The position numbers were made by a program, and so were the translations under genes. A stretch of 64,000 nucleotides of DNA from an uncultured Planctomycetia bacterium. Its GTDB lineage: Bacteria > Omnitrophota > Gorgyraeia > Duberdicusellales > 4484-171. The stretch is from contig CAYVYJ010000003.1 of assembly GCA_964455085.1 (NCBI GenBank), forward strand, positions 7,364 through 71,363, written 5' to 3'. The notes below the pieces were generated by a model, which was not told where the DNA came from, did no database searches, and was given only the letters and a program-made list of their open reading frames with translations. The first letter of the stretch is position 1, and the number at the start of each line of letters is the position of its first letter. Shown piece after piece: positions 6,466 through 57,606 of this stretch.

Positions 6466-7326
6466 ATGGGAAAAATCGGAATAATCGGGGGAAGCGGTCT
6501 CTATGGCTTAGAAGGGATTAAAGAAAAAGAGGAAGTCGCAATCAATACACCTTACGGTGCGCCTTCGGACCGCTTTTTTATCAGTGAATTAGAGGGTAAA
6601 GAGGTAGTTTTTCTTCCCCGTCATGGTAAGCATCATCAATTTAATCCTTCTTCTATCAACTACCGAGCAAACATTTACGGGATGAAGAAGCTGGGCGTTG
6701 AAAAACTTATATCACTTACCGCATGCGGCTCATTAAAAGAAAGATATCAACCTATGGACTTTGTAATTCCGTTACAGTTTGTCGACAGGACTAATCAAGC
6801 CAGAAAATATACCTTTTTCGACCAAGGAGTTACTGTCCATATTGGGTTTGCTCACCCAGTCTGCCTTGATTTAGCTGGACAGTTAAAACAGGCTGCCGAG
6901 AATGTGGGGGTAACCACCCATTACGGCGGTACTTATCTTAATATGGAAGGGCCGCAGTTTTCTACATTAGCCGAATCAAACCTCTATCGTAGTTGGGGAA
7001 TGGATATTATCGGAATGACCAATATGGCCGAGGCTCGACTAGCCCGGGAGGCTGAGATTTGTTATGTAAGTTTAGCCGCTGTTACTGATTATGACTGCTG
7101 GCATCCGGACCATGACAACGTAACTCTCGATATAATATTAAATAATCTCAAGAATAATGTGGCTAATTCAAAAAAGATACTTACAGAATTTATATCTCTG
7201 GTAACTGACCAACGAAATTGCGGTCATCAGGAGGCTTTGAGGCAGGCAATAGTTACAAGACCTGAGTATATCCCAGCGGAAATTAAGAAAAAATTAGACA
7301 TTATCCTCAGTAAGTACCTAAAATGA
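6466..7326 (+). CDS. mtnP: S-methyl-5'-thioadenosine phosphorylase (PNP family)
   Basis: MGKIGIIGGSGLY...TPYG...FLPRHG PNP/MTAP signature. Confidence 0.8.
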   Translation: MGKIGIIGGSGLYGLEGIKEKEEVAINTPYGAPSDRFFISELEGKEVVFLPRHGKHHQFNPSSINYRANIYGMKKLGVEKLISLTACGSLKERYQPMDFVIPLQFVDRTNQARKYTFFDQGVTVHIGFAHPVCLDLAGQLKQAAENVGVTTHYGGTYLNMEGPQFSTLAESNLYRSWGMDIIGMTNMAEARLAREAEICYVSLAAVTDYDCWHPDHDNVTLDIILNNLKNNVANSKKILTEFISLVTDQRNCGHQEALRQAIVTRPEYIPAEIKKKLDIILSKYLK

Positions 7327-8222
7327 GCGTTTTGGTAGTAGGTTCAATCGGTTTAGATACAATAACCACTCCTTTTGGCAAAGAGAAAAATATCCTTGGC
7401 GGTTCAGCAATTTATTCAGCGATAAGTGCCAAGGTATTCAGCGAAGTTAATTTAGTCGCAGTAGTGGGAAAAGATTTTCCCAGGAAATACATCAATCTAC
7501 TCAAGAAAAAGGGAGTGGATTTAAAAGGTTTAAGGAAGGAACAGGGAAAAACTTTTCGCTGGGAAGGCGAGTATGGCTGGGATTTTTCAAACCCCCGGAC
7601 AATATCTACTGATTTAAACGTTTTTGCCAAGTTTGACCCTGAAATCCCTTCCGCTTACCAAAAGAGTGAATATGTATTTTTAGCTAATATTGATCCTCAA
7701 ATCCAAGCCAAAGTTTTAAACCAGGTAAGCCGGCCAAAAATAGTTGCTTGCGATACCATGAATTATTGGATCGAGAACAAGCTAAAAGCTCTGCTAAAAC
7801 TTCTTAGACGAGTAGATATTTTCCTGCTTAATGAATCGGAAGCCAAGGAATTGACCCAGGAAGTCAATCTGATTAAAGCCGGTAAAAAAGTGCTTAAGTT
7901 AGGTCCCCGGATAGTGATTATAAAAAAGGGTGAACACGGTGTACTTTTATTTGCCCAGAAACATGTTTTTGTCACCCCGGCATATTTACTTGAATCGGTA
8001 TATGATCCTACCGGAGCCGGAGACACTTTCGCCGGTGGATTTATTGGTTATCTGGCGAAATGCCAGCGCTTAAACCAACAAGCCTTAAGAGAAGCGGTTG
8101 TCTACGGGACTATAATGGCCACTTTTGCAGTAGAGGACTTCAGTTTAAGGCGCTTAAAGTCAGTAAGTTTTGTTGATGTCCGCAAGCGACTAAAAGAATT
8201 TAAAAAATTTACTCATTTTTAG
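7323..8222 (+). CDS. PfkB-family (ribokinase-like) sugar/nucleoside kinase
   Basis: DPTGAGDTFAGGFIGYL ribokinase signature; translationally coupled to mtnP. Confidence 0.7.
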   Translation: MSVLVVGSIGLDTITTPFGKEKNILGGSAIYSAISAKVFSEVNLVAVVGKDFPRKYINLLKKKGVDLKGLRKEQGKTFRWEGEYGWDFSNPRTISTDLNVFAKFDPEIPSAYQKSEYVFLANIDPQIQAKVLNQVSRPKIVACDTMNYWIENKLKALLKLLRRVDIFLLNESEAKELTQEVNLIKAGKKVLKLGPRIVIIKKGEHGVLLFAQKHVFVTPAYLLESVYDPTGAGDTFAGGFIGYLAKCQRLNQQALREAVVYGTIMATFAVEDFSLRRLKSVSFVDVRKRLKEFKKFTHF

Positions 8223-8223
8223 A

Positions 8224-27724: not shown

Positions 27725-27768
27725 CCCCCGCCGCAAGATTGCAGAATCTTAAAGCGGGGGATTTATTT
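27725..27768. terminator. Bidirectional intrinsic terminator between the ferredoxin (+) and the convergent minus-strand gene
   Basis: CCCCCGC..AAGATT-gcag-AATCTT..GCGGGGG nested stem followed by ATTTATTTTA. Confidence 0.6.
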
Positions 27769-29183
27769 TACAAAGGGAACTTTAAGGTTATTTCCTGGTT
27801 AAGACCCTCAAGGAACTTTAATCTTTCGATGAATTCCTTCCGTAATTTAATTTCATCGTGATAGGTTTGCTTTTTAGTTTCAAAGTCCTTCTGGTTAAAA
27901 GGTGTTTTATCACTCAACTGAATGATATATACGCCTTTATCTAGAGGGAGAATCTCTGAGTGAATTCCTCCCGGCTCAAGCGAGAAGACTATTGCGCTCA
28001 CCGCCTCATCCAAGCCTAAACCTTCAATATAATCGGTGTATTTAAAATATCCGGTAGTCCTGAATTCAACATTAGATTTAGCCGGGAGTTTATTCAGGTC
28101 ACTTATTTTCGCTTCTTTAATTTCTTCCAAAAATTCTTGCCCGAACTTTCTTGTTTCGGCTTCGGCCCGGGTAAGGATTAATTTTTCGGTGACCTCGTCT
28201 TTTATTTCACCAAGGGTAGGGATAAATTCTGGTCTCTCATCATCTTTGCCAACTATAATAATACCTTTTCCCAACTTTATCGGTCTGCTGATTTGATTTA
28301 TGGCTAAATTAAAAGCAGTTTGGTTTAATACCGGCTGCCAGCCAATTTCGCTAATCGGCTCATCTATGCCGACAAATCCGGTCTCTTTAAGCTTAAATGA
28401 TGTTTTTTCCTCTAGCTGATCAAGAGTAGTTAAATTTGATAATAGGTTTAATTCTTCATCGCTTAATGGGTCATCTTTACTAATTAAAAAATATTTTATA
28501 TTTATTTTGGCTTCACGCTGAAATAAAGCTCTGTTATCCTGGTAAAACTCTTCAATCTCACCAGGATTTATCCCGACGTCAACGCGGAATTTCTCATAAG
28601 GGATAAACAAATAGTTAATTTTTGCTTCTTGAGTATCAATTGCATATAAAGCGCGTATCTGGTTATCACTGACGGTAATTTGAACCAGCTGCGCCCATAA
28701 TTTATCAATAGCAATAAAATCCCGGATATATTCTTCAAAACTACGCGGGGTAAGATTGATGTTGTAGATCCGGGAAATATACTCGATATATCGCTCATAA
28801 ACTTCTCGGTCAAATTTTCCGCCCGGGCTAAAATTCCGATTAACCCATTTCGCTATTTCATCATCGCTCACTGTAATTTTCCTTCCCTTAACCTTCCAAA
28901 GTAAACGAAAGTAGGTCTTGGCTTTTTCGATAACCTCACTAGAACTAATTGCCTTTTTACCATCTTGAGAATTGGTATGAAGGATGAAATCCAAACGGGC
29001 TAAATCAATATAGTATTTAAAGTCCGGAATCGGTATCCGGCGGTTTGCGATTTCAGCAACTATCGGCATATTCCGCTGTTGGAGAAAGGAACGGGCACCG
29101 GAGAGAACAAAAACTACGATAACCGCTATGGCGACCACCCAAATAATCTTTTTAGCATGTTGTCCGCGAATTGTGGTAAGCAT
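27768..29183 (-). CDS. Membrane-anchored SurA/PpiD-like periplasmic chaperone / degenerate parvulin PPIase domain protein
   Basis: N-terminal TM anchor, long helical region, parvulin-like NQISRPIKLGKGIIIVGKD segment; low-certainty call. Confidence 0.45.
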   Translation of the reverse strand: MLTTIRGQHAKKIIWVVAIAVIVVFVLSGARSFLQQRNMPIVAEIANRRIPIPDFKYYIDLARLDFILHTNSQDGKKAISSSEVIEKAKTYFRLLWKVKGRKITVSDDEIAKWVNRNFSPGGKFDREVYERYIEYISRIYNINLTPRSFEEYIRDFIAIDKLWAQLVQITVSDNQIRALYAIDTQEAKINYLFIPYEKFRVDVGINPGEIEEFYQDNRALFQREAKINIKYFLISKDDPLSDEELNLLSNLTTLDQLEEKTSFKLKETGFVGIDEPISEIGWQPVLNQTAFNLAINQISRPIKLGKGIIIVGKDDERPEFIPTLGEIKDEVTEKLILTRAEAETRKFGQEFLEEIKEAKISDLNKLPAKSNVEFRTTGYFKYTDYIEGLGLDEAVSAIVFSLEPGGIHSEILPLDKGVYIIQLSDKTPFNQKDFETKKQTYHDEIKLRKEFIERLKFLEGLNQEITLKFPL

Positions 29184-29365: not shown

Positions 29366-29733
29366 CGGGGGTGCATGGACTCGACTTAGAGGTTAGATGA
29401 AGTGGTTGCATGCCGTAGGGGTAAGGCCGAACGTATCCGGGCTTACAAAACACAAAGGCAAATACACAATTTGCTTACGCAAACACACCTGAGTTAGTAG
29501 AAGTAAACTAACCAGGGCTCTTAAATTTTTGCCTCAGGAAATTTAAGAGTTCGGTTATGAGGCTAGAAATAAACCTCTGGCTTTGAGGGTTTATTTCGAA
29601 ACAAAACAAAGTTGCTTTCTGGGGAATCCCGCCTTCTGGAGTCTCCAGAAAAAAGATAAAGAAAAGGCTAAGCATGTAGGAGCTGTTTGTCAACCCTTTA
29701 AGGACGCGGGTTCGAATCCCGCCACCTCCACCA
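29366..29733 (+). ncRNA. ssrA: tmRNA (SsrA transfer-messenger RNA)
   Basis: 5' GGGGGTGCATGGACTCGAC and 3' GGACGCGGGTTCGAATCCCGCCACCTCCACCA (T-arm, acceptor pairing with the 5' end, encoded CCA); ~368 nt. Confidence 0.85.
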
Positions 29734-30478: not shown

Positions 30479-31003
30479 CTAGCCCTTAACTCCAGTTATC
30501 GCGAAGAAATTAGGGATAAATTTATCGGATTTAGTACCCATTACATCTTCTTTAAATGGTGTAGTTGCGATTAACACACCACCCTGCTTAAGCACACGAT
30601 TGGTCTCCCTTAAAGCTATATTTATGTTTTCACCGCGCATGTGCTCAAATAGTTCGCAAGCGGTAACCAGCTGGAAAAAATTACTTTGGGAAGGAATTTT
30701 AGTAATAGATCCTTTCTTAAGGGTTGCCGACTTAAGTAACTGATCAACCCGTTCTATAGTCCGATTAGCAATATCTACTCCATAGACCTTAAATAAACCG
30801 CTTTTTAGCGCCTTGTTTAGTAAATAGCCGTCGGTTATACCAATATCTAAATAAGGCAAAGATTCGCCTTCGGGGCGATACTTAATCATTTTTGAAAAGA
30901 CAATATCTAATCGCCCGTGCGCCAGACGCCGCTCTTTAAGCGGCCTTCCAGCACCATGTTCATAGAACTTCTCGTCTACCAATTCTTCTTTTAATAGTCG
31001 CAC
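30479..31003 (-). CDS. Class I SAM-dependent methyltransferase
   Basis: LDIGITDGYL (motif I-like), LKQGGVLI (post II/III) Rossmann MTase pattern. Confidence 0.6.
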   Translation of the reverse strand: MRLLKEELVDEKFYEHGAGRPLKERRLAHGRLDIVFSKMIKYRPEGESLPYLDIGITDGYLLNKALKSGLFKVYGVDIANRTIERVDQLLKSATLKKGSITKIPSQSNFFQLVTACELFEHMRGENINIALRETNRVLKQGGVLIATTPFKEDVMGTKSDKFIPNFFAITGVKG

Positions 31004-35266: not shown

Positions 35267-36403
35267 ATGAAAACTTATTTTGCATCAGAGTCAGTAACCG
35301 AAGGGCATCCCGATAAGGTTTGTGACCAAATATCCGATGCGGTATTGGATGCTGTTTTAGCTAATGACACTAAGGGACGGGTAGCTTGTGAAGCCTTAGT
35401 TACTCGTGGTTTTGTAATGGTGGCCGGTGAAATTACTACCAACTGTTATGTAGCGGTCCCAAAAATTGTCCGCGGCCTATTAAAAGATATTGGATATGAT
35501 GACCCGGCAGTAGGGTTTGACTATGAAAGCTGCGGTGTGGCTACCGCAATTCAAGAGCAATCTCCGGATATTGCCCTGGGTGTAGATACCGGCGGTGCTG
35601 GTGATCAAGGATTAATGTTTGGCTATGCAAATTCAGAGACCCCGGAACTTATGCCTTTACCGATTATCTTATCCCATAAATTAGTCAAACGTTTAGCCCA
35701 AATCCGTAAGGAAGGGATAACTCCTTATTTGCGGCCGGACGGAAAAGCGCAAGTGTCTGTAGAGTATGAAAATGGGGTACCCAAACGCGTGGATGCGGTA
35801 ATTATCGGCGCTCACCACACCAAGGATGCTAAAATGGATGTTTTAAAGGATGATGTTAGAAAACTGGTAATCGAACATATCATCCCCAAAGATATGCTGG
35901 ATAAAGATACAAAATATTTTATCAACGGAACCGGGCGATTTGAGGTTGGTGGGCCGGTTTCCGATACCGGTGTAACCGGACGGAAAATTATCGTTGATAC
36001 CTACGGTGGTTATGCCCGTCACGGTGGTGGCGCCTTTAGTGGTAAGGACCCTTCAAAGGTCGATCGTTCAGCATCCTATATGGCCCGCTACATTGCCAAG
36101 AACATTGTTAGCGCTGGTATTGCTCGCGCCTGTGAAATACAACTATCTTATTGTATTGGCATAGCTGAACCGGTATCAGTAAGCGTAGATACTTTCGGAA
36201 CATCTCAGATAGCTGACGAAAAAATCTCTACGGCTATCCGCCAAATCTTTAAGCTTACTCCAGCCGGAATTATTGAGGAGTTAAACCTCTTACGGCCGAT
36301 TTATACAAAAACCGCTGCTTACGGTCACTTTGGACGGGAAGAAGAAGGTTTTAGCTGGGAGAAGACTGACCGGGTAAGCGATTTAAAGAATGCTCTAAAA
36401 TAA
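35267..36403 (+). CDS. metK: S-adenosylmethionine synthetase
   Basis: [25 protein letters not shown] and GGGAFSGKD motifs. Confidence 0.95.
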
Positions 36404-36430
36404 GAAAATCTTAACCAAAGGAGTAGAGAG

Positions 36431-37693
36431 GTGAATTGCGATATAAAAAATAAAAACCTAAAACGAGAAGGTAAACGGAGAATCGAATGGGCCCTGATGC
36501 GAATGCCAGTACTGGAACAAATCCGGGAACGCTTTAGACGGGAAAAACCCTTAAAAGGGTTGACTATCGGAGCCTGTCTGCACGTTACTACCGAAACGGC
36601 AGCCTTAGCCTTAACTTTAAAAGCAGCCGGCGCCCGCACCTTGCTTTGTGCCTCAAATCCTTTATCGACTCAGGATGATACAGCTGCATCTTTAGCCTTT
36701 GATTATGATATTGAAGTATTTGCAATTAATGCCGAAGATACTAAAACTTACTATAAACATATTGATTCGGTATTGAAACTTAACCCGGTTATCACTCTTG
36801 ATGACGGAGCGGATTTAGTATCTACGATTCACAAACGGGCTGCTTCGCAAAAAAACCTAAAGCTACCCTGGGCAAGCACTGAAGAGACGACTACTGGTGT
36901 AATTCGCCTCAAAGCTTTGCAAAAGGAAGGCCGGCTTCTTTATCCGATTATTGCCGTAAATGATGCTTATACCAAACACCTCTTTGATAACCGCTACGGC
37001 ACTGGTCAATCAACCCTTGATGGAGTAATCCGGGCTACCAATAAATTGATAGCCGGGACAACCGTAGTTATCTGCGGTTATGGCTGGTGTGGCAAGGGTG
37101 CAGCCAGAAAAGCTCAAGGATTAGGCGCAAATGTAATTGTCTGTGAGGTTGACCATCTTAAAGGGTTGGAAGCCATAATGGATGGTTTCCGGGTAATACC
37201 GATGCGCCAAGCAGCCTTAATCGGCGATATCTTTATCACCCTTACCGGAGATATAAATGTTATCTCTAGTCAGCACTTCCCCTTATTAAAAAATAAATCA
37301 ATTATCTGTAATTCCGGGCATTTTGATGTTGAAATCAACATTAAGGCATTGGAGAAAATGACAGTTTCTAAAAAGGAAGTTAAACCTTTGGTCACCGAAT
37401 ATACACTTAAAAATAAAAGGAAGATTTATTTATTAGGCGAAGGCCGATTAGTTAACTTAGCCTGTGCCGAAGGCCATCCGGCTGAAGTCATGGATCTAAG
37501 TTTTGCCAATCAAGCTTTAAGTTGTGAGTATATTGCTAAGAATCATCAGAAGTTGAAGAAACAAGTCTATAAAGTCCCGGATAAAATCGATGCTATGGTA
37601 GCAAAGTTTAAACTCAAAGCTATGGGCATAAAAATCGATACCTTAACTGCTGAGCAGAGGAAGTATCTTGCCAGCTGGCAAGAAGGAACCTAA
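36431..37693 (+). CDS. ahcY: Adenosylhomocysteinase (GTG start)
   Basis: SAHH pattern: N-terminal substrate domain, NAD domain GYGWCGKG. Confidence 0.9.
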   Translation: MNCDIKNKNLKREGKRRIEWALMRMPVLEQIRERFRREKPLKGLTIGACLHVTTETAALALTLKAAGARTLLCASNPLSTQDDTAASLAFDYDIEVFAINAEDTKTYYKHIDSVLKLNPVITLDDGADLVSTIHKRAASQKNLKLPWASTEETTTGVIRLKALQKEGRLLYPIIAVNDAYTKHLFDNRYGTGQSTLDGVIRATNKLIAGTTVVICGYGWCGKGAARKAQGLGANVIVCEVDHLKGLEAIMDGFRVIPMRQAALIGDIFITLTGDINVISSQHFPLLKNKSIICNSGHFDVEINIKALEKMTVSKKEVKPLVTEYTLKNKRKIYLLGEGRLVNLACAEGHPAEVMDLSFANQALSCEYIAKNHQKLKKQVYKVPDKIDAMVAKFKLKAMGIKIDTLTAEQRKYLASWQEGT

Positions 37694-45830: not shown

Positions 45831-46919
45831 ATGTTTAATCTGGGAGCGGTTAAATTAAAATTATCGGGCCTTAAGACAATTATCATCTGCATAATCATCC
45901 TTAATCTCTTAAGCTTATTATCAATTTACAGTAGCCTTCATCAAGGTGGAGAGTTCCTGGAGCGGCAGATTCTTTATAAGCAAATTCTCTGGATTGCTGC
46001 TTCCTGGATTTTGATACTTTTTCTTGCCCGGGTAAATTACCGAATATATTTTGGCATCGGCTATATACTCTACGCCCTAAACATAATCTTACTCTTAGCC
46101 GTATCTTTTTTCGGAAAAACCGTAATGGGAGCCCAGCGCTGGATTTCAATCTTGGGTATTACTTTCCAACCCTCGGAAATATCCAAAATTGCTATAATTA
46201 TCCTTCTGGCCAGGGTTCTTTCGCAGAACGAACAGAAAGGCCCAAAGGGATTCCTGCTCCCTTTGAGTCTAGTTGCATTCAATGCCCTGGTTATTTTTAA
46301 ACAACCAGATTTAGGTACAGCTTTAATCATTGTTTTTCTTTTTATTGGCCTGGGACTATTTTCCCGGATAAGTAAACGCTACTTTTTAGCCCTTTTTCTG
46401 ATTGGACTACTTCTTGCTCCTTTTGGCTTAAGCCAGCTCAAAGACTACCAACGCCAAAGGTTAACCGTCTTCATCAATCCCAGTGTTGATCCTCTTGGTT
46501 CTGGATACACAATTATTCAATCAAAGATTGCAGTTGGTTCAGGTAGGCTGACCGGCCAGGGATTCCTGGCTGGAACCCAGAATCAATTCAACTTCCTTCC
46601 TGAGAGACACACCGACTTTATATTCACCGTAATTGCTGAAGAGTGGGGATTTATTGGTGCATTATTCCTGCTGCTAATTTACTGGTTAATCTTAAAAAAA
46701 ATTTTGGAAAAAACTAAGGAGCTAGCTGATCCCTTTGCCTCCTACCTTTGCTTGGGGATAAGCTTACTCTTTTTCATCCATATCTTTATTAATATCGGTA
46801 TGACCTTAGGGATACTTCCGGTAGTAGGCCTGCCCTTGATCTTCCTTAGTTATGGCGGAACTAACCTTTTCGTTAACTCTATCCTCTTAGGAATCTTCTT
46901 AAATATTGCTCAGCGATGA
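45831..46919 (+). CDS. rodA: Peptidoglycan glycosyltransferase RodA (SEDS family)
   Basis: SEDS polytopic pattern (QPSEISKIAIII, FIFTVIAEEWGFIG). Confidence 0.85.
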   Translation: MFNLGAVKLKLSGLKTIIICIIILNLLSLLSIYSSLHQGGEFLERQILYKQILWIAASWILILFLARVNYRIYFGIGYILYALNIILLLAVSFFGKTVMGAQRWISILGITFQPSEISKIAIIILLARVLSQNEQKGPKGFLLPLSLVAFNALVIFKQPDLGTALIIVFLFIGLGLFSRISKRYFLALFLIGLLLAPFGLSQLKDYQRQRLTVFINPSVDPLGSGYTIIQSKIAVGSGRLTGQGFLAGTQNQFNFLPERHTDFIFTVIAEEWGFIGALFLLLIYWLILKKILEKTKELADPFASYLCLGISLLFFIHIFINIGMTLGILPVVGLPLIFLSYGGTNLFVNSILLGIFLNIAQR

Positions 46920-48562
46920 TTGATTTTACCAATTTCCAAAAACCCCAGAGGTATATTGGCAATGAATGGAATGTGCTAACCAGAACGCACTCAGGAAAGA
47001 TAAATGTCTGTCTCTCTTATCCGGATCTTTACGAAATCGGAATGAGTAATCTGGGAATAAGAATTATCTATGGCCTGCTTAATCAATACCCTGAGATAGC
47101 CTGTGAACGGGTATTTATGCCGGCTAATGATTTACTCCGTTTCTTAAAAGAAAAAGGCGAAAAATTATTTTCATTAGAAAGCCAACGTCCCTTAAATGAA
47201 TTTGAAATTTTAGGCTTCCATCTCGGCTGTGAACTAAACTTTACTAACATGCTTAATATTCTGGACTTAGGCGGTATCCTCTTAAGAGCCGAGGAGAGAA
47301 GCGAAACCATAGTCATCGGCGGCGGCATTGCTAATCCTGAACCGCTGGCTGAATTTATCGACCTATTTTTACTTGGTGAGTTTGAAGAAGTGGCTGAGCA
47401 ATTTACCGGGGTTTTAAAACAATACACCAATAAAGAAGAGAGACTAAAGGCCTTTGCTCAAATCAAGGGGTTTTATGTGCCTAAATTTTACTCGGTGTCA
47501 TTTAAAAATAATCGCTATAGTTTTGTTAAAAAATACTCCTTAGCAATGCTTCCTCTAAACCGGGTCTACCTTAAGGACCTTGATCAGGGCTACTATCCTG
47601 CTCAGTGGCTTACTCCTCATACTCAAATCACTCATGACCGAGCCCAGATTGAAATCGCCCGGGGTTGCCCCAACCAGTGCAGATTTTGTCAGGCCCGGGC
47701 ATTATATTGGCCCTACCGTCAAAGAAGCCTGGTCAAAATTAAACAAATGATCGAAGAAATCTATAAGTGGAGTGGCTATGAGGACTTCTCCCTTCTTTCC
47801 CTTTCGGCATCTGACTATTCTGACATCCAGGGACTGATTGCTGAGGTCTGGGATTATTGCAAAAGCCGACGGATCGGACTATCACTACCTTCCCTGCGTA
47901 TTGACGATATTCTCGGACCGTTATATCAGCAACTTAGCACACTTAAAAAAACTTCGCTGACGGTTGCTGTTGAGGCACCGCGCGATTGCCTGCGGAAAAA
48001 ATTAAATAAAAACTGTGATATCAATAAATTATTCGAAGCAGCCCGGCTAATCCGAAAACTGGGAGCAAAAAAACTCAAACTCTACTTTATGTTTGGCTTT
48101 CCTGATGAGGCCCAAGAAGACTTAATTGCTATCGGTGAGTTTCTCAACCGGCTGCGAAGAAATAGTCAGATTGAGCTTAATGCCAGTATAAATATGTTTA
48201 TACCCAAACCCTTATCACTCTGGCAAAGTACGATTATGGATAGTCTAGAAAGACTTGAGGCGAAGCGAGAGACCATAATCGGAAATATCCCGAAGACTTC
48301 TCAGATTAAATTTTCCCTATCCTCGGCTAAAAAAACTATTTTAGAGGCAATTATCGCCCGGGCTGATAGAAAGTTTTCAAAAGTTATCTACCGAGCTTAT
48401 CAATTGGGAGCCCGATATGATGGACATAATGAGTATTTTTCCTGGAATATCTGGGAAAAGTCAATGAGTGAGGAGGGAGTAGATTATCAAACTTATCTTT
48501 ACCAGGATCGCCAGAACCATCCTTGGTCGTTAATTAGTTCGGAAAATGGATCATGCAAATAA
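46916..48562 (+). CDS. Radical SAM protein with N-terminal B12-binding-like domain (TIGR03960-like)
   Basis: GCPNQCRFC CxxxCxxC radical-SAM cluster motif; QRYIGNEWN N-terminal block; ATGA overlap with the rodA stop. Confidence 0.75.
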   Translation: MIDFTNFQKPQRYIGNEWNVLTRTHSGKINVCLSYPDLYEIGMSNLGIRIIYGLLNQYPEIACERVFMPANDLLRFLKEKGEKLFSLESQRPLNEFEILGFHLGCELNFTNMLNILDLGGILLRAEERSETIVIGGGIANPEPLAEFIDLFLLGEFEEVAEQFTGVLKQYTNKEERLKAFAQIKGFYVPKFYSVSFKNNRYSFVKKYSLAMLPLNRVYLKDLDQGYYPAQWLTPHTQITHDRAQIEIARGCPNQCRFCQARALYWPYRQRSLVKIKQMIEEIYKWSGYEDFSLLSLSASDYSDIQGLIAEVWDYCKSRRIGLSLPSLRIDDILGPLYQQLSTLKKTSLTVAVEAPRDCLRKKLNKNCDINKLFEAARLIRKLGAKKLKLYFMFGFPDEAQEDLIAIGEFLNRLRRNSQIELNASINMFIPKPLSLWQSTIMDSLERLEAKRETIIGNIPKTSQIKFSLSSAKKTILEAIIARADRKFSKVIYRAYQLGARYDGHNEYFSWNIWEKSMSEEGVDYQTYLYQDRQNHPWSLISSENGSCK

Positions 48563-48855
48563 CTAAATACCCACTTAAGGTAACTCTCACTAAGCGCGGG
48601 AAGATGATTTATTTCTCGCAAATCGATTTAATACATCTCCTGGAACGGGCCCTAAGAAGAACTGATTTACCGCTTTATTTTACGCAAGGATTCAGGCCAC
48701 ATGTTAAAATCAGTTTATTGACTGGCTTAAAAGTGGGGCAGGAAGGTGAAATCAAGGCAGTTTTTTATTTTAGCCAAAGTATTTCCCTTAACTGCTTAAA
48801 GCAAGCTTTAGCCAATCAACTCCCTCAAGGATTAGCAATTGCCTCAATCAACTGA
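48553..48855 (+). CDS. Radical-SAM-linked small protein (DUF2344/TIGR03936-like)
   Basis: Small partner ORF overlapping the rSAM 3' end, with QGFRPH motif. Confidence 0.55.
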   Translation: MQITKYPLKVTLTKRGKMIYFSQIDLIHLLERALRRTDLPLYFTQGFRPHVKISLLTGLKVGQEGEIKAVFYFSQSISLNCLKQALANQLPQGLAIASIN

Positions 48856-48892
48856 TAAGATATTTATTAAAGGTAGAAATAGAGGAGGAGGA

Positions 48893-49252
48893 TTAACGCT
48901 TAAGTAAGGCAGCCTTGATTCGTCTGGCTTTGAAGAACTTTTTAGTGAAGTTTTTAGCTCTGGACTGATCATACTTCTTGCAAGAGAAAATGTTAATATA
49001 GGCAGTAGACCAGTGCTCAGAGAAATGACCGGTTATCGAGCTAGTTTCGATTAACTGGACCAAGGAATAACCCTTAGTAAAGGCTTTCTTTTCGCCAAAG
49101 TAAGGCAGCAGGGTTTTCCCGTATTTTTTCATTTTTATCAGCTTACATAACTTATTAGTATATTCCTGTAATTTCTTTTTAGAAGAAATTATAGTCAGAT
49201 CACACCCATAAAGGTCCATAACTAACTCGTAACCAAACAATCTTTTTGCCAT
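48893..49252 (-). CDS. Small pyruvoyl-type S-adenosylmethionine decarboxylase proenzyme homolog (class 1b SpeD/SpeH-like)
   Basis: MDLYGCD N-terminus and LIETSSITGHFSE self-processing-site region resembling the ESH...HTWPE block; AAGGAGGTGA RBS. Confidence 0.65.
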   Translation of the reverse strand: MAKRLFGYELVMDLYGCDLTIISSKKKLQEYTNKLCKLIKMKKYGKTLLPYFGEKKAFTKGYSLVQLIETSSITGHFSEHWSTAYINIFSCKKYDQSRAKNFTKKFFKARRIKAALLKR

Positions 49253-49468
49253 TTAATCACCTCCTTTTAAAAAATTGTCTCTAGTTTTGAAATGGGTATT
49301 TGATGGAAGGAAGAAGAGGGGGGCGTAACACAAAGAATCGCCTATAAAGCGAACCCTTGTGCATCTTAAGTGTCCGTCAGTCGGGTGATTTTTTTCTGTC
49401 ACCATCCTTTTTTATTATTTTTTTATTCTTATATAGCATAAAAGCTAATCATTCCTGTAATTTAAGTT

Positions 49469-49497
49469 TTTATATCACATTTTTATCGTTTTGGCAA
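49469..49497 (-). promoter_or_regulatory. Putative minus-strand sigma70 promoter (TTGCCA-N17-TATAAA, TGa extended -10) driving the AdoMetDC-like gene through a ~215-nt leader
   Basis: Read on the reverse complement; sits just past the stop of the upstream dehydrogenase gene. Confidence 0.35.
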
Positions 49498-49504
49498 GAG
49501 TTTT

Positions 49505-50722
49505 TTAACTGGTTTCCCGAATTTCTGTGGGGAGTCCGATCCTATTCAGTAATTCAATAAAGGGATCAGGATCTAGCTCCTCAACATTAACCATAGCTTT
49601 CCTATCCCAGATACCCTTAGCTACCAGTATGGCTGCGGCAACCGGCGGAACACCAGCAGTATAGCAGATAGCTTGAGATTCTACTTCCCTATAACATGCA
49701 GCATGGTCACAGTTATTGTAAATAAAAATTTCTTTATCTTTACCGTCTTTGCTGCCGCGAATTAAGTTTCCGATACAGGTTTTCCCGCTATAGCCAGGTG
49801 CTAAAGAAAGAGGGTCAGGCAAAACAGCCTTTAGAACCTTAAGCGGTACCACCTCAACTCCCTCGGCAGTTGTCACCGGCTTAACCGAAGTCAATCCCAG
49901 TTTAGTAAGGACCGTAAAAATATTTATATAGTGGTCGCTAAAACCCATCCAGAACCGGATGCTGTTGGCATCGATATTCTTGGATAAGGAGTGAATTTCA
50001 TCGTGACCACTTAAATAGACTGTCTGTTCGCCGACTACCGGAAAATCATAAATTCTCTTTATTGAATGGATTTTGTTGGCTACCCATTTTCGATTAATCC
50101 AAGACCAGGCTTTTATAAATTCGCGGAAATTTATTTCCGGATCAAAGTTAGTTGCGAAATATTTACCGTGTTCTCCGGCATTAACGTCCATTATGTCAAT
50201 TGTATCAATAGTATCAAAATGATGTTTAACAGCAAGCGCAGAGTAGGCATTTACAACTCCGGGGTCAAACCCTACGCCAAGAATAACGGTAATCCCTTTT
50301 TCTTGGCAGATGTCCTTACGTTTCCATTCATAGTTTGCATACCAGGGGGGATCCTCACAAGGCTTATCCGGTTCCTCATGGACTGCGGTATCCATGTAGG
50401 CGACACCAGCCTGGATACAAGCCTCAAGCAGTGATTTGTTTACGTAGGCAGTAGCGAGATTAATTACGATCTGGGAGTTAGTTTCCTTTATCAGTTTTAC
50501 TGTAGCCGGGATATCGTAGACATCTATCTGGCGCGAGTAAAGTTTTTTAGTTTTATCCTTTAAGCTACTCCTTCGTTTAATGCTTTCGATGATCGCATCA
50601 CACTTATGCTGCTTTCTTGATGCAATACAGATATCACCTAAGAGATCATTGTTTTGTGCGCACTTATGCCCTGCCACATGAGCAACCCCACCAGCACCGA
50701 TAATCAACACATTTTTTTTCAT
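49505..50722 (-). CDS. Carboxy(nor)spermidine dehydrogenase (saccharopine dehydrogenase family)
   Basis: N-terminal NVLIIGAGGVAHVAGHKCAQ Rossmann region and ~400 aa length. Confidence 0.65.
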   Translation of the reverse strand: MKKNVLIIGAGGVAHVAGHKCAQNNDLLGDICIASRKQHKCDAIIESIKRRSSLKDKTKKLYSRQIDVYDIPATVKLIKETNSQIVINLATAYVNKSLLEACIQAGVAYMDTAVHEEPDKPCEDPPWYANYEWKRKDICQEKGITVILGVGFDPGVVNAYSALAVKHHFDTIDTIDIMDVNAGEHGKYFATNFDPEINFREFIKAWSWINRKWVANKIHSIKRIYDFPVVGEQTVYLSGHDEIHSLSKNIDANSIRFWMGFSDHYINIFTVLTKLGLTSVKPVTTAEGVEVVPLKVLKAVLPDPLSLAPGYSGKTCIGNLIRGSKDGKDKEIFIYNNCDHAACYREVESQAICYTAGVPPVAAAILVAKGIWDRKAMVNVEELDPDPFIELLNRIGLPTEIRETS

Positions 50723-50740
50723 TTTAACCTGCCTCCGAAG

Positions 50741-51844
50741 TTAGGATAAACTGTTTTGAAAATCTTTATACCCAAAACGGCGGACTACCTCCAAAGACCT
50801 ATCCAGCCTTTTTACTACAATTGAAGGCATTTTCAAGCCGTTAAACCAATTTTTTTTAACCATTGTATAACCGGCGGCATCAGCAATACGGATCACTTTA
50901 CCCACTTTTAGCCGGGATTTGAATCGGTAAGTACCGAAGATGTCTCCGGCCAAACAAGACCGCCCGGCAATCATATATTTAAACCGGCCCTGACCGGAAG
51001 TTTTTATCTTGGCACTCTGGCCATAAACTAACAAGTCTAACATGTGGGCTTCGGTTGAAGAATCAACTATGGCAATATTAATTTCATTATCAACGATATC
51101 TAATACTTTAGTCACCAGTTCAGCCGAGTCAATAATCGTAGCTTCTCCCGGTTCCAGATAAACCTGAACCCCAAATCGACTTTGAAACTCTTTTAGCAAT
51201 TTCCAAAATTTTTCGATTGGATAACCTTTTTTGGTAAAATAAATCCCACCGCCAAGGCTTACCCAGTTCAAAGTCTTTAACAAATCTCCGTAGTCGCGGC
51301 TAATTTTATTCAAATTCATGGCAAAATTTTTAAAATTATCGTTTTCACAGTTAAAATGGAACATCACTCCTTTAATTAAAGGTGCTACCTTAAGCAGCAA
51401 TCTTTTATCAATAATACCCAGTCTTGAGAACTTCCTTGCCGGGTCAGCTAAATCAAAGTGCGAGAAACTAACTTGGGGGTTTACTCTTAATCCTATATCC
51501 AGTGAACTGACCTGACCGTAAAACATCTTCAATTGTGATATCGAATTAAAAATTATTTTATCAGCGTATGGTTTGACTTTGTTTATCTCATTCTTCGAGA
51601 AAGCTACACTGTAGGCATGGATTTCTTTGCCGAATTTTTCTTTTCCCAAACGGGCCTCATACAAAGAACTACTGGTTGTGCCATCCAGATATTTACTGAT
51701 TAGACCGAAAACCGACCAGGTGGAAAAACACTTCAGGGCTAACAACGATTTTACCCCGGATTGTTCCCGGATGTACTTTATTATTTTTAGATTTCTTAAT
51801 AATTTACTTTCCTGAATTAAATAGTAGGGTGTTGGTAAAATCAT
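50741..51844 (-). CDS. nspC: Carboxy(nor)spermidine decarboxylase (NspC-like, PLP fold III)
   Basis: N-terminal PYYLIQESKLLRNL NspC pattern, ~370 aa; tandem with the dehydrogenase. Confidence 0.7.
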   Translation of the reverse strand: MILPTPYYLIQESKLLRNLKIIKYIREQSGVKSLLALKCFSTWSVFGLISKYLDGTTSSSLYEARLGKEKFGKEIHAYSVAFSKNEINKVKPYADKIIFNSISQLKMFYGQVSSLDIGLRVNPQVSFSHFDLADPARKFSRLGIIDKRLLLKVAPLIKGVMFHFNCENDNFKNFAMNLNKISRDYGDLLKTLNWVSLGGGIYFTKKGYPIEKFWKLLKEFQSRFGVQVYLEPGEATIIDSAELVTKVLDIVDNEINIAIVDSSTEAHMLDLLVYGQSAKIKTSGQGRFKYMIAGRSCLAGDIFGTYRFKSRLKVGKVIRIADAAGYTMVKKNWFNGLKMPSIVVKRLDRSLEVVRRFGYKDFQNSLS

Positions 51845-51976
51845 AATTTAACCACCTCCTAAGTAAACTTTGGGCTATATTAGCAATATTTAATTATTAT
51901 GGCAAGGCTTTTTTCATAAATTGCTTGAGAATCATCCTTATTTCTGTTAAAATCGGGCTGGTATTATAACGGTTAG

Positions 51977-52048
51977 CCGAGGTGGCTCAGTTGGTAGAGC
52001 AGGGCATTCGTAATGCTCAGGCCGAGAGTTCGATTCTCTCCCTCGGCT
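51977..52048 (+). tRNA. tRNA-Thr (anticodon CGT)
   Basis: Cloverleaf GCCGAGG...anticodon loop TTCGTAA...T-arm GAGAG-TTCGATT-CTCTC, 3' CCTCGGC-T. Confidence 0.85.
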
Positions 52049-52096
52049 TAATTAAGAAAGCACCTAAGTTACAAAGGCGTAACCCCGAAAACCACG

Positions 52097-53350
52097 ATGG
52101 TTTTAAAATACATTAAGATTCTGACTCGACGGAACTTTTTCCTCCTTTGGTTTGGCCAGATTATCTCCCAATTCGGAGACCGGCTCACCCAGATAGCCTT
52201 AGTCGGCTTAGTCTCCCAGATCTCCATGTCATCTTCACGTTTAGCCTTGGTAATGAGTATGGCCATAATCCCGGTGTTTATCGTTTCGCCTATCTCGGGG
52301 GTCTATATTGATCGCTGGAGCAAGCGAAAGACTATGTACATCAGTGACTTCTTAAGAGGGATTTTTATATTGCTGATCCCTTTCTTTTTCTTAAAGCTTA
52401 AATCATTTATCGCAATCTATGTCCTTATTTTTCTCTCCTTTAGCGCTGGAAGGTTTTTTATCCCGGCTAAAATGGCCTTTATTCCTAAAGTCTCTAAAAA
52501 AGAAGATATTTTCCTGGCTAATTCCCTGATTTCGATAACTGCTACCATTGCTGCGGTTATCGGCTTTGGCCTGGGAGGAATTATTGTGGAGAAGTGGGGT
52601 ATTAATGCTGCCTTTAGCCTCGATGCAACTACCTTTTTCATCTCTTGTTTAGCCGTGTTTTTTATCAGTACCAGGGAAAAAGGAGACTTTAAGGTACAAG
52701 ATATTTTATACCTGGGAAAGAATGTGGTTAGTGGGGTCAAGCAATCATTTATCTGGGAATTTCGGGAGGGAATAAAATATATCTTCAACTCCCACGAGAC
52801 AAAATATGCTTTTAAGATGTTCCTGTTTATTTTCTCCTATATTGGCGGATTATATGTTGTCTTTATTCGCTTTATTCAAAGGGTCTTATCTTCTCTGACT
52901 ACTGATTTAGGCTTTATTACTGTATCTTTAGGCCTGGGTATCTTTTTAGGCTCTTTAATTTACGGACGAATTGCCCATAAATTCTTGGTAAAAAAAGTTA
53001 TAAGTCTGTCTCTTTTTCTTACTTCACTTTATCTGATATTCTTTGTTCTAGTACTACGGGCTTACCCTCAAACCCTTTATGCCATTGGTTTGGCCTTTAT
53101 TCTGGGAATGATAACCTCTCCGGTATTTGTAGGAGTGAATGCTTTAATCCATAAGGAGAGCGATGAAAAAGTATTGGGAAGGATTTTCAGCGGATTAGAA
53201 TTCACCTCGCACTTAGGATTTTTGCTATCAATGTTTATCTGCTCAGCCTTGGCAGATTTCTTCAATCCCTTTACAATCATTATCTCACTTGGTATAATTG
53301 GCTTTTTCTTATCAACCATATCGCTATTTACCCATGATCAAAGTAACTGA
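52097..53350 (+). CDS. MFS transporter
   Basis: 12-TM pattern with MFS motif region (GVYIDRWSKRK). Confidence 0.7.
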   Translation: MVLKYIKILTRRNFFLLWFGQIISQFGDRLTQIALVGLVSQISMSSSRLALVMSMAIIPVFIVSPISGVYIDRWSKRKTMYISDFLRGIFILLIPFFFLKLKSFIAIYVLIFLSFSAGRFFIPAKMAFIPKVSKKEDIFLANSLISITATIAAVIGFGLGGIIVEKWGINAAFSLDATTFFISCLAVFFISTREKGDFKVQDILYLGKNVVSGVKQSFIWEFREGIKYIFNSHETKYAFKMFLFIFSYIGGLYVVFIRFIQRVLSSLTTDLGFITVSLGLGIFLGSLIYGRIAHKFLVKKVISLSLFLTSLYLIFFVLVLRAYPQTLYAIGLAFILGMITSPVFVGVNALIHKESDEKVLGRIFSGLEFTSHLGFLLSMFICSALADFFNPFTIIISLGIIGFFLSTISLFTHDQSN

Positions 53351-55539: not shown

Positions 55540-56089
55540 AATAACCTCGGTATTAACTACAGTTTGTCTGGTCTGTGCTTTTTTACTTTCCTTTGTCTGG
55601 GGGCTATCCCATAAAAAGATTGCTTTTAATGCTGAAAGAAGAGTGGAGGAAGCCTTGTCGATTCTAGCCCCCCAAGCAGCCGAAATAAGGGAGGCTCATA
55701 TCGACGAGGAGCTGATATACAAACTTTTTGATCAAAATGAAAGTCTAATCGCTTATGCTTTTATAGCTTCCGGCCAAGGCTATCAAGGAAAAATCAAAAT
55801 GCTGGTAGTAGCGGAGGCAAGCTTAAACCGTCTGGTGGGTATTGAAGTAGTAGAGTCTTTGGAAACTCCCGGATTAGGGGCAAAAATACAAGAGGATTTC
55901 TTTAAGCAACAATTTGCCAATTTAAGTTTAAAAGGCGAGATTGTCTGCCGAAAAGGTGTACTTGATGGGCCGGGGCAGATAAAAGCGATTACCGGGGCAA
56001 CTGTTTCTTCCCAGGCTGTAGTCAATATCTTGAACCAACGCCTTAAGCAAATACGGGAAGTAATTAAGGCCGAGAGGAAGTTAGAATGA
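55523..56089 (+). CDS. rnfG: Rnf complex subunit G (FMN-binding)
   Basis: N-terminal TM plus FMN_bind domain with the TGATVSS covalent-FMN motif. Confidence 0.8.
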   Translation: MREVVKITSVLTTVCLVCAFLLSFVWGLSHKKIAFNAERRVEEALSILAPQAAEIREAHIDEELIYKLFDQNESLIAYAFIASGQGYQGKIKMLVVAEASLNRLVGIEVVESLETPGLGAKIQEDFFKQQFANLSLKGEIVCRKGVLDGPGQIKAITGATVSSQAVVNILNQRLKQIREVIKAERKLE

Positions 56090-57606
56090 AACTCTTTGTT
56101 GAAACCAGCGCCTCAATGAAAAAAACAAAATTTATCGCCATAATCATAATCCTGTCGGCACTGCTTTATGCCAACTCCCTTAACGGTGATTTTGTTTCCG
56201 ATGATATTGGTTCTATTCGTGATAACCCCTCAATAGATAAATTTTCTGGTTTGAATTTAAGTGCAATCTTTAATTGGGTTGGCTATAAAATTTCCGGTCT
56301 CAACCCTTTTGCGCATCATTTAAGTAATCTTATCCTTCACGCAGCCTGTTCAGTCTTGGTCTTTTATATTCTTCTGGGTTTTTTCAGTCTCTGGCCTAGC
56401 TTCTTAGCCACACTTCTTTTTGTAGCTCACCCGGTACACACTGAAACTATTGCCTGGATTTCCGGAAAAGCCTACGCATTCTCAGCGCTTTTAATTTTTG
56501 CTTCTTTTCTTCTTTACCGCCGGGCTACCAGTCAAGATAAGCTAAAACCTTATGCCTATTTATTTTCGATTATCCTTTGTAACCCTTTTCATGCTTACTG
56601 GTATCTGGGAGTCTATCCGGCCATGATCATCCTTTATGATTTTACTTATCGCCGGGTAAAGAAAAACTGGCCCTACTGGATACCCTATATTGGATTAGTT
56701 ACAGTCTGGGTAATCAAGCGGATTATGGCGATTACTCAAAGAATTGATGTTTTAAGTTCGCCGACAATAATTGGCACCAATAACCTCATTTACAAATTAG
56801 CCTTTTCTTTCTTCTCGCACTTAAAATTACTACTTTGGCCCGGTCGATTAACTCTCTACCATGAACCAACTACCATTACCCAAGAATTACTTCTGGTTGA
56901 GATAATTGCTATTGGTGCAATTATTTGTTTTCTACCCTTTCTTTTTAAGCGGGCTAAGGAACTTTTCTTTGCTTTGGGAATATATGTTCTCTTTCTGGCT
57001 CCTACCTACAGTCCGATCTTAATCAGCTGGACTATTGCTGAGCGCTATCTCTATGTCCCCTCAGTGGGATTTTTTATCTTTATTGCTTTCATAATCGAAA
57101 ACTATTACCGACGGCCAAAGGCAAAAATCATCATTGCCATCCTAATGGTCTTGACTATCGGAACTTATTCAATAAGGACAATTATCCGAAACAACGACTG
57201 GAGCAGCCGAGCAAATCTCTGGCGGGCCACGGTTAGAGTCTCTCCCTTAAGCGCTAAGGCTCACAACAATATGGGCGATATTTATACCGTCGAAGGTGAT
57301 TTAGTGCGGGCTGCTGATGCCTTTAAATACGCAATAAAACTTAATCCTAACTACGCTGAAGCTTATCATAATCTTGGCACTACTTATGGCAAGCTGAACC
57401 AAATTAAGCTGGCAGCAAAATTTTACAAAAAAGCGCTATCTTTAGCGCCGTCACTCTATCAATCACATCAAAATCTCGGTGCGATTTATTTTAATCGGGG
57501 AGATTTCGGTCTGGCTAAAAAGCATCTGAGCCAAGCTTTAAAGTTTCTTCCCCAAGATTCGCCTAACCGAGCTGTGATTTTGAATGCTTTGGAAAGAATA
57601 CCTTAA
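56086..57606 (+). CDS. TMTC/DUF1736-like polytopic membrane protein with C-terminal TPR repeats (putative GT-C glycosyltransferase)
   Basis: HLSNLILHAACSVLVF and FVAHPVHTETIAWISG blocks typical of the DUF1736/TMTC family, DD motif in the first loop, 4-5 TPRs at the C-terminus; inserted between rnfG and rnfE. Confidence 0.55.
   Translation: MKLFVETSASMKKTKFIAIIIILSALLYANSLNGDFVSDDIGSIRDNPSIDKFSGLNLSAIFNWVGYKISGLNPFAHHLSNLILHAACSVLVFYILLGFFSLWPSFLATLLFVAHPVHTETIAWISGKAYAFSALLIFASFLLYRRATSQDKLKPYAYLFSIILCNPFHAYWYLGVYPAMIILYDFTYRRVKKNWPYWIPYIGLVTVWVIKRIMAITQRIDVLSSPTIIGTNNLIYKLAFSFFSHLKLLLWPGRLTLYHEPTTITQELLLVEIIAIGAIICFLPFLFKRAKELFFALGIYVLFLAPTYSPILISWTIAERYLYVPSVGFFIFIAFIIENYYRRPKAKIIIAILMVLTIGTYSIRTIIRNNDWSSRANLWRATVRVSPLSAKAHNNMGDIYTVEGDLVRAADAFKYAIKLNPNYAEAYHNLGTTYGKLNQIKLAAKFYKKALSLAPSLYQSHQNLGAIYFNRGDFGLAKKHLSQALKFLPQDSPNRAVILNALERIP

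Follow-up and report, generated by a model that had tools for sequence, protein, structure and literature searches.

A predicted SAM-independent spermidine pathway in Omnitrophota with apparent remains of speD and speE in its leader

Why should a gene of the S-adenosylmethionine decarboxylase (AdoMetDC) family stand beside the genes of a spermidine pathway that is independent of S-adenosylmethionine (SAM)? The question is raised by a block of three minus-strand genes in a 64,000-nucleotide stretch of an uncultured Omnitrophota genome (contig CAYVYJ010000003.1 of assembly GCA_964455085.1; hereafter the window, whose first letter is position 1). The block encodes a 367-aa carboxyspermidine/carboxynorspermidine decarboxylase dependent on pyridoxal 5'-phosphate (PLP) (CASDC, 50741..51844), a 405-aa NADPH-dependent carboxyspermidine dehydrogenase (CASDH, 49505..50722) and a 119-aa proenzyme of the AdoMetDC class 1b fold, which we assign to the SpeDC type (48893..49252). 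A preliminary description made from the letters of this DNA had placed three minus-strand open reading frames (ORFs) here, and all three are co-directional and lie at exactly those positions. We estimate a probability of roughly 75% that this block is a SAM-independent spermidine pathway starting from ornithine and that the leader of speDC holds the remains of a former speD-speE pair, the activities and substrates being predicted from sequence.

In the proposed pathway, the SpeDC proenzyme would cleave itself between T70 and S71 into a beta chain of ~8 kDa and an alpha chain of ~5.5 kDa, the latter bearing an N-terminal pyruvoyl group derived from S71, with H76 and C91 as the predicted catalytic residues. 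The mature enzyme would convert L-ornithine to putrescine, CASDH would condense putrescine with L-aspartate beta-semialdehyde and NADPH to carboxyspermidine, and CASDC, as a PLP enzyme, would decarboxylate the latter to spermidine. The preliminary description considered it unexpected that an AdoMetDC-like gene should be found with CASDH and CASDC, a view that gives way to the literature, in which clusters of speDC with casdh/casdc have already been published (PMC10407285). The module is a further case of that arrangement, in a phylum from which SpeDC enzymes have been characterised. The new part of this work is found in the speDC leader, and consists of the relic of speD and speE, its open frame, a short upstream ORF (uORF-A) and a hairpin.

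The small decarboxylase and its two partners

Many prokaryotic homologues of AdoMetDC (SpeD) lack AdoMetDC activity and are instead pyruvoyl-dependent arginine (SpeDA) or ornithine (SpeDC) decarboxylases (Li et al., J Biol Chem 2023, PMC10407285). According to the same study, the SpeDC enzymes form one clade that is recognised by Gln, Thr, Phe and Tyr residues around the processing serine, whereas an invariant proline is retained in bona fide AdoMetDCs, and speDC genes cluster with speD/speE, casdh/casdc or hss. Two of the characterised SpeDC enzymes come from Omnitrophota, namely that of Ca. Velamenicoccus archaeovorus LiM and the OLB16 fusion protein. In two fusion proteins the C-terminal domain is a proven ornithine decarboxylase (ODC), and in one of these, from D. 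phosphitoxidans, the exchange S229A in the motif QLIETS abolishes ODC activity (PMC10407285). A 2026 paper on homospermidine in the Journal of Biological Chemistry mentions neither SpeDC, CASDH nor Omnitrophota.

The 119-aa protein belongs to this superfamily. It matches the Pfam family AdoMet_dc (PF02675) with 63.1 bits (cut-off 25), and its AlphaFold2 model (pLDDT 91) superposes on the AdoMetDC of T. maritima (1VR7/1TLU) with a TM score of 0.85 and a root-mean-square deviation of 1.6-2.0 Å at 22% identity. From this match to the class 1b fold we infer that both the fold and the self-processing chemistry have been kept. The residues agree with this: S71, H76 and C91 align with T. maritima S63, H68 and C83, which are the processing serine and the catalytic His and Cys, and S71 aligns as well with S229 of D. 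phosphitoxidans. The processing-site stretch reads GYSLVQLIETSSITGHFSEHWSTAYINIFSC, with the predicted cleavage at QLIET/S. Both the assignment to a class 1b AdoMetDC-like proenzyme and the candidate processing region IETSSITGH put forward in the preliminary description are thus borne out, the latter comprising residues 68-76 and aligning with the ESH processing site of the T. maritima enzyme.

Within the superfamily, the protein falls on the side of the ornithine decarboxylases. All four residues of the SpeDC signature are present (Q66, T70, F77 and Y85), and E79 occupies the position of the AdoMetDC proline. We compared ten positions, which in the window protein are Q66, E69, T70, S71, S72, H76, F77, E79, Y85 and C91, across 113 SpeD-family sequences, comprising all SpeD-family ORFs of 80 fetched loci together with reference sequences (three proven AdoMetDCs and two proven ODCs). 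These positions divide the set cleanly into 81 sequences of the form Q..ETS..HF..Y..C and 32 of the form ..ESH..H[T/S/A]xP..A..C. The window protein and both proven ODC domains are in the first group, and all three proven AdoMetDCs are in the second. Hidden Markov models (HMMs) of the two classes give the same answer, with 190.8 bits for the SpeDC-type model, built solely from sequences less than 60% identical to the window protein, and 30.1 bits for the canonical SpeD model. Alignment with the ODC domain of OLB16, the characterised fusion protein from Omnitrophica, gives 39% identity (E 3e-29), and a 140-aa orthologue from Anaerolinea thermophila, whose strain UNI-1 has a characterised ODC of that same length, is 46% identical; against T. 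maritima AdoMetDC the window protein reaches only 18.7 bits.

In other words, the window protein has in common with the characterised SpeDC enzymes the fold, the QLIET/S site, the His and Cys pair, the four diagnostic residues and the loss of the AdoMetDC proline, as well as a size of ~120 aa, the clustering with casdh/casdc and the phylum. It is itself uncharacterised, and is 35-46% identical to those characterised members that can be aligned. With the class 1b AdoMetDCs (T. maritima TM0655, PDB 1TLU/1VR7; B. subtilis SpeD, TIGR03330) it shares the fold, the predicted processing at an internal serine and the His/Cys pair, but identity is 21-25%, TSS replaces ESH, the proline is lost, Q66, F77 and Y85 are substitutions, and the predicted substrate is ornithine instead of AdoMet. 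The preliminary description had suspected a neofunctionalised AdoMetDC homologue that supplies the diamine, and proposed an alignment with AdoMetDCs and their neofunctionalised homologues; in such an alignment the protein groups with the ODC domains and not with bona fide SAM decarboxylases, which together with the signature, the HMM scores and the similarity to OLB16 supports that suspicion. Its choice between arginine and ornithine, which it had left open, can be narrowed, since the sequence evidence favours ornithine. We therefore regard the small protein as a SpeDC-type pyruvoyl proenzyme and a predicted L-ornithine decarboxylase.

The two larger genes belong to the CASDH and CASDC families, as had been proposed. 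The 405-aa protein matches both Pfam saccharopine dehydrogenase domains, Sacchrp_dh_NADP (PF03435) and Sacchrp_dh_C (PF16653), and its NCBIfam match is taken up below. The 367-aa protein scores 432.7 bits against TIGR01047 (nspC), over the cut-off of 409, and its best match in the PDB is 3MT1, a putative carboxynorspermidine decarboxylase of Sinorhizobium, at 452 bits over the full length; the two share the motif ALKCF, in which K38 is the putative Schiff-base, PLP-binding lysine. The diamine used by the dehydrogenase can be approached through three positions that differ between characterised enzymes: N104/F113/E228 in CAPADH, I113/W126/D241 in the CASDH of A. tumefaciens and V112/E125/D240 in the carboxynorspermidine dehydrogenase (CANSDH) of V. 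cholerae (Xi et al., Sci Adv 2023, PMC10599626). By alignment, the window enzyme has V114, W127 (at +13) and H240-D241, and the pattern [I/V]/W/D is found in all 21 full-length CASDH orthologues that adjoin speDC. V114/W127/D241 reads as a putrescine-type signature, and it fits a partner that is predicted to make putrescine. The block therefore resembles the A. tumefaciens pathway in its pair of genes and in its [I/V]-W-D signature, and its decarboxylase is nearest to the Sinorhizobium enzyme; it differs in that putrescine would come from a predicted pyruvoyl ODC, not from a PLP-dependent ODC or arginine decarboxylase (ADC).

The history of the site

How did the three genes come together? Database homologues of the small protein are overwhelmingly from Candidatus Omnitrophota. 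A scan of a one-genome-per-species collection returned at least 567 confirmed relatives, and loci were compared for the best 80 of these. Two arrangements prevail: the SpeDC-type gene stands beside canonical speD (with ESH and WPE motifs) and speE in 31 of the 80 loci, and beside CASDH/CASDC in 18. On a complete Omnitrophota chromosome (locus L011) the order is MFS, tRNA-Thr(cgt), speD, speE, speDC, DUF2344, radical SAM, rodA; the flanks are those of the window, and the SpeDC of L011 is 74% identical to the window's. Because orthologues coexist with canonical speD at the same site in sister genomes, the window gene is unlikely to be a SAM decarboxylase itself.

The order of the genes varies. 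In the window it is casdc-casdh-(relic)-speDC, in contrast to the published speDC-casdc-casdh. Further orders are seen in L018, L019, L021, L024 and L025 and in L056, L074 and L080-L086: speDC-casdc-casdh is found in some Omnitrophota, and speD-speDC-speE in Atribacteria, Anaerolinea and Patescibacteria. It appears from these comparisons that the same predicted ODC gene has been joined to either spermidine route several times.

The gap between CASDH and speDC (49253-49504, 252 bp) is conserved in relatives. Read along the minus strand, it contains a promoter-like site, an invariant block TTAGCTTTTATGCTATA and a 50-codon ORF (49253..49405, minus strand) whose TAA stop abuts the speDC ATG. When the profile of this ORF was aligned with that of canonical Omnitrophota SpeD (hhalign), residues 3-40 matched SpeD residues 2-39 with a probability of 92% and an E-value of 6e-7. 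The better preserved counterpart in locus L030 is 46% identical to SpeD 1-41, its C-terminus matches residues 251-276 of the 281 in SpeE, and its stop overlaps speDC by the same 8 nt as speE does in L011. A direct tblastn search of the window with canonical SpeD left the ORF undetected; it was found only by the profile comparison and through L030 as an intermediate. On these alignments we read the 50-codon ORF as what remains of the first ~40 codons of speD, continued in the same frame by the 3' end of speE, and refer to it as the relic ORF.

The match to the SpeD profile and the SpeE tail and overlap in L030 suggest a history of insertion followed by in-frame deletion. The ancestral order would have been tRNA-Thr, speD, speE, speDC, that is, an ODC plus the SAM-dependent route. 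The casdc-casdh pair, which now lies between tRNA-Thr(cgt) and the old speD promoter, would have been inserted there, and a later in-frame deletion would have taken out most of speD and speE, so that ~40 codons of the former would run directly into the tail of the latter. What was left, a promoter, a 20-codon uORF, the short relic ORF and a hairpin, would now constitute the leader of speDC. At 0.39, the GC content of the block resembles that of the remainder of the window and thus gives no sign of recent transfer.

In another Omnitrophota genome (L007), a 111-aa ORF upstream of speDC (7459-7794) resembles a decaying speD, with 29% identity and ESY/RPG in place of ESH/WPE, the speDC ORF itself (7791-8360) has an N-terminal extension of ~70 aa, and over a distance of 8 kb there is neither speE nor CASDH. 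Here speD may have been lost independently. In L023, on another complete Omnitrophota chromosome, the relic ORF is joined in frame to speDC (7779-8360), so that gene callers would give an 'AdoMetDC' of ~190 aa. Several database homologues of 159-190 aa may be the same artefact or fusion.

The window contains neither speE nor an intact speD, only the decayed speD immediately upstream of speDC. Among its ORFs of at least 110 aa, no match was found to spermidine synthase, PLP-dependent ODC or ADC, the agmatinase/arginase family, agmatine deiminase or diaminobutyrate aminotransferase/decarboxylase, and a tblastn search of the window with an Omnitrophota SpeE query returned nothing.

The surroundings of the block agree with the preliminary description, which had called it the only multi-gene minus-strand block and placed it between a rodA-linked radical-SAM pair and tRNA-Thr. 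The other family-matching minus-strand ORFs of at least 110 aa are two isolated ones (27768-29183 and 30479-31003). On one side of the block are the genes for rodA, radical SAM and DUF2344; on the other side are tRNA-Thr(cgt) (51975..52049, plus strand), which is a conserved landmark of the module's outer side, and a gene for a transporter of the major facilitator superfamily (MFS). Identical copies of the locus, with the same neighbours, occur on several metagenome contigs. The MFS gene (MFS_3/MFS_1, 52097-53350, plus strand) is divergent and lies beyond tRNA-Thr, next to the polyamine genes whether these are speD/speE or CASDH/CASDC; it is at most a speculative candidate for a polyamine transporter. 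Directly after rodA there is a pair of genes (46916-48855, plus strand) in which a radical-SAM gene (Radical_SAM_N2 plus Radical_SAM) overlaps a 100-aa DUF2344 gene, the DUF2344 part spanning only about half of the Pfam model. This pair stays beside speDC across many Omnitrophota loci.

The leader of speDC

Does the wreck of speD and speE still do anything? We compared eight leaders from the genome collection and 12 from a pattern scan of metagenomes, in which 22 of the 34 matches were chance matches outside this context; 14 distinct leaders were available for the relic frame. The relic ORF has 50-110 codons in these, stands at an offset of 0, 1 or 2 to speDC, and has no internal stop in any of the 14. 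In 13 of them it ends between -18 and +28 nt from the speDC ATG, and the fourteenth is the in-frame fusion of L023. When stops were counted by frame in the eight genome-collection leaders, the relic frame had three, all terminal, and the remaining frames had 41 and 54.

The upstream ORF, uORF-A (49377..49439, minus strand), has 20 codons, encodes MLYKNKKIIKKDGDRKKSPD and ends in TGA. It begins in the invariant block with an ATG that is looped out by a 4-bp hairpin, TAGC/GCTA (49447-49434). Relative to the relic ORF it is in the +1 frame, and it extends across the start of that ORF to a stop 26 nt past the relic ATG. Its length is exactly 20 codons in 13 distinct leaders, in which the three frames contain 0, 11 and 25 stops. 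The position of its stop is invariant, while the codon is TGA, TAG or TAA depending on the leader, most often TGA and usually with C next. A +1 frameshift from uORF-A into the relic at GAC-UGA-C, in the manner of prfB or antizyme, was considered and dropped, as every leader has the ancestral speD ATG and none has a slippery codon.

Within the relic ORF there is a stem-loop (49335..49355, minus strand). By RNAalifold and pair counts, 88.5% of its cells are paired and seven of its eight pairs show compensatory change; the observed value was not attained in any of 500 shuffles, and slid controls gave at most 52%. In the window the stem can be extended to 49360-49330, with -13.4 kcal/mol, and a scan flags the hairpin as terminator-like. 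A conserved promoter-like site is found upstream of it and none conserved downstream, and therefore transcripts of speDC must read through it. Just 3' of the hairpin is a C-rich, G-poor tract GTTACGCCCCCCTCTTCTTCCTTCCATCAAATACCC (49285-49330, minus strand) that resembles a candidate Rho loading site; related leaders have similar pyrimidine-rich tracts. A search of positions 48500-52300 against Rfam, with E-values up to 1, returned only the tRNA and a chance snRNA match, which leaves the leader without an Rfam family.

The promoter-like site (49469..49497, minus strand) lies directly 3' of the CASDH stop codon. It consists of a -35 element TTGCCA (49497-49492), a spacer of 17 nt, and TGn with a -10 element TATAAA (49477-49469), and its position is kept in 15 related leaders. 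The upstream regions of L018, L031, L016 and L028 have the same layout as this site, with an A/T-rich stretch, CTTGCAAA, ~17 nt and then TTTGnTTTAATAT or TGTGnTATAAAA. The recurrent consensus is probably a housekeeping promoter type of these Omnitrophota, and the window site is a candidate promoter. We had considered the shared promoter as a sign of speD ancestry and dropped the idea, since the consensus precedes unrelated genes in relatives.

Taken at face value, the relic ORF, uORF-A and the hairpin appear conserved beyond what neutral decay would lead one to expect, and they may form a putative leader-peptide attenuator for speDC. Translation of uORF-A would set the number of ribosomes entering the overlapping relic ORF. 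Ribosomes would probably translate the relic ORF as far as the speDC start, overriding the internal terminator hairpin and the C-rich, G-poor tract downstream of it. In this way translation of speDC could become coupled to that of the relic, and premature termination of transcription could be suppressed. In the simplest reading, the ribosomes on the relic carry both transcription and translation into speDC, and uORF-A modulates entry. There are precedents for leader ORFs linked to polyamines: E. coli speFL, an ornithine sensor that precedes the ODC gene speF, and E. coli mdtU, a leader ORF for which spermidine and Rho-dependent termination have been described (PMC7815308). Like these and the uORFs of eukaryotic AdoMetDC genes, the present leader places a short conserved ORF before a polyamine gene, together with a putative signal for termination that translating ribosomes could override. 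It differs from them in its peptides, which show no similarity to theirs, and in being built from the wreck of speD and speE and holding two overlapping ORFs; its regulation is putative. We consider it possible, though on the present evidence doubtful, that this wreck has been recruited as a cis-regulatory leader that tunes ornithine decarboxylase to polyamine or ornithine levels.

The alternative is that the 252-bp gap is a decaying pseudogene scar without present function, whose open frame and hairpin are inherited leftovers. It is the rival that survives best, a tentative reading to which we assign less than even chances but which has to be taken seriously, as a good deal weighs against a functional leader. 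The relic peptide is poorly conserved, at 22-40% identity between relatives, and cannot be aligned past about residue 35. speDC has a strong Shine-Dalgarno sequence of its own (GGAGG, 49264-49260). The promoter consensus is generic, since it also stands before other genes, and the search for a conserved antiterminator with RNAalifold was negative. Most relatives have a T run 3' of the hairpin, up to seven long and reaching that length in several of them, but the window is weak in this respect, with only TTCTTTGTGTT. The leader is limited to one sub-clade, and about half of the genomes with intact speD lack a uORF overlapping the speD start in the +1 frame, so that uORF-A is not ancestral to all of them. 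A functionless scar sits poorly, however, with a relic frame that has stayed open over 50-110 codons at all three offsets while stops filled the other frames, with a relic end that stays close to the speDC ATG or is fused to it, with a uORF-A that holds to 20 codons by means of three different stop codons at one position, and with compensatory change at seven of eight hairpin pairs.

Other assignments and what the locus means

The enzymes themselves could also be read otherwise, and each of these readings is contradicted by a tested feature. In the first, the block would follow the CAPA pathway: the small protein would be SpeDA, the dehydrogenase would use agmatine together with aspartate semialdehyde, and a ureohydrolase encoded elsewhere would complete spermidine. 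There is reason to consider this, as many annotated CASDHs condense agmatine and have been renamed CAPADH (PMC10599626), and the four closest structures to the window enzyme (PDB 4INA, 4RL6, 8DEB and 8H4Z) carry CAPADH-type residues: in all four the first position is N and the third is His-Glu, and in three of them (4INA, 8DEB and 8H4Z) F stands at +9. In addition, one member of the SpeDC clade, from Pelagibacter phage HTVC201P, is a characterised arginine decarboxylase (PMC10407285). The window dehydrogenase itself, with V114/W127/D241, differs from the Synechocystis CAPADH/CAPADC pathway in lacking the N/F/E signature, and the 4-residue deletion typical of CAPADH is missing from it; its own signature is the one common to all 21 orthologues beside speDC. 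With the diagnostic SpeDC residues present in the small protein and no arginase/agmatinase-family ORF found in the window, we consider the agmatine route improbable.

Still less probable is a Vibrio-like route in which the two larger enzymes would turn 1,3-diaminopropane into norspermidine, the small decarboxylase being functionally unrelated or serving another polyamine. The names of the best NCBIfam matches, carboxynorspermidine synthase and decarboxylase, speak for it, as do the agreement of V114 with V112 of V. cholerae CANSDH and the possible promiscuity of CASDH/CANSDH-type enzymes (PMC10599626). The synthase match (NF043000, a Vibrio-type model) is the best that the 405-aa protein has, yet at 486.7 bits it falls far under the cut-off of 800; at position 127 the protein shares W with A. 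tumefaciens CASDH, where CANSDH has E; no diaminobutyrate aminotransferase/decarboxylase was found in the window; and the gene order with speDC is kept in 18 loci. Least probable of all, to the point of being hardly credible, is that the small protein is a genuine SAM decarboxylase whose product, decarboxylated SAM, would go to an aminopropyltransferase that is encoded elsewhere, for although it matches Pfam AdoMet_dc, its homologues are so named in NCBI records, and metK and ahcY lie in the window, which is all of this genome considered here, it scores only 27.6 bits against the AdoMetDC equivalog TIGR03330 (cut-off 75.65), has TSS for ESH and E79 for the invariant proline, has orthologues of 64-74% identity that adjoin canonical speD in sister genomes, lies directly downstream of a decayed speD, and belongs to a motif class in which every characterised member lacks AdoMetDC activity (PMC10407285).

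Several points nevertheless count against the ornithine pathway that we favour. Neither the window protein nor any close orthologue is among the biochemically characterised enzymes, and the presence of an ADC inside the SpeDC clade makes clade membership an imperfect predictor of substrate. A search of a phage collection, intended to gauge how well the motif discriminates with the help of that one ADC, gave no match to the window protein, and an Anaerolinea SpeDC query returned distant phage SpeD homologues, HTVC201P not among them. The four diagnostic residues were located by alignment to characterised sequences, which makes their mapping to the published logo indirect, and the reference domains come from a supplement read by optical character recognition in which obvious misreads were corrected. 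The best NCBIfam match of the dehydrogenase, discussed above, is to a norspermidine model. CASDC requires PLP, a cofactor whose biosynthesis is absent or only partial throughout the Omnitrophota (PMC10407285). Finally, our view of the genome is the 64-kb window, and genes for speE, speA, speB or agmatinase may lie elsewhere.

A few further features of the window were observed along the way. A PNP_UDP_1 phosphorylase gene (6466-7326, plus strand) could encode methylthioadenosine phosphorylase, and the metK-ahcY pair is at 35267-37693 (plus strand). The tmRNA (29367-29733, plus strand) encodes the tag peptide ANTQFAYANTPELVEVN, whose end is unlike the usual hydrophobic, LAA-like tail. A gene for a 506-aa TPR-repeat protein (56086-57606, plus strand) lies inside the rnf operon, between the gene for the FMN-binding subunit and those for Rnf-Nqr membrane subunits, and the same arrangement occurs in identical metagenome contigs.

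The ornithine pathway proposed here has a consequence for annotation. NCBI and JGI records label SpeDC-type homologues 'S-adenosylmethionine decarboxylase' or 'S-adenosylmethionine/arginine decarboxylase-like enzyme', and this is probably a systematic mis-annotation. Because these homologues are predicted ODCs under the label of a SAM decarboxylase, reconstructions of Omnitrophota and other uncultured phyla that rely on labels would misstate how polyamines are synthesised.

We propose that the locus records a pathway swap at a single chromosomal site, in which the speD/speE step gave way to the aspartate-semialdehyde-dependent step of CASDH and CASDC, while the predicted pyruvoyl ODC was retained and the change left a datable scar. 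Such a swap bears on the question, raised by the study that defined SpeDC (PMC10407285), of how modules are integrated after transfer. The value that the locus adds thus lies in the evidence that the family is mislabelled, in a replacement of speD/speE in situ that is documented by its scar, and in a candidate leader element. Should the scar indeed serve as a regulatory leader, it would offer a clear example of a pseudogene giving rise to a regulatory element, and would be the first candidate for a polyamine-responsive leader outside the Gammaproteobacteria, a bacterial counterpart of the uORFs of eukaryotic AdoMetDC genes, speFL and mdtU.

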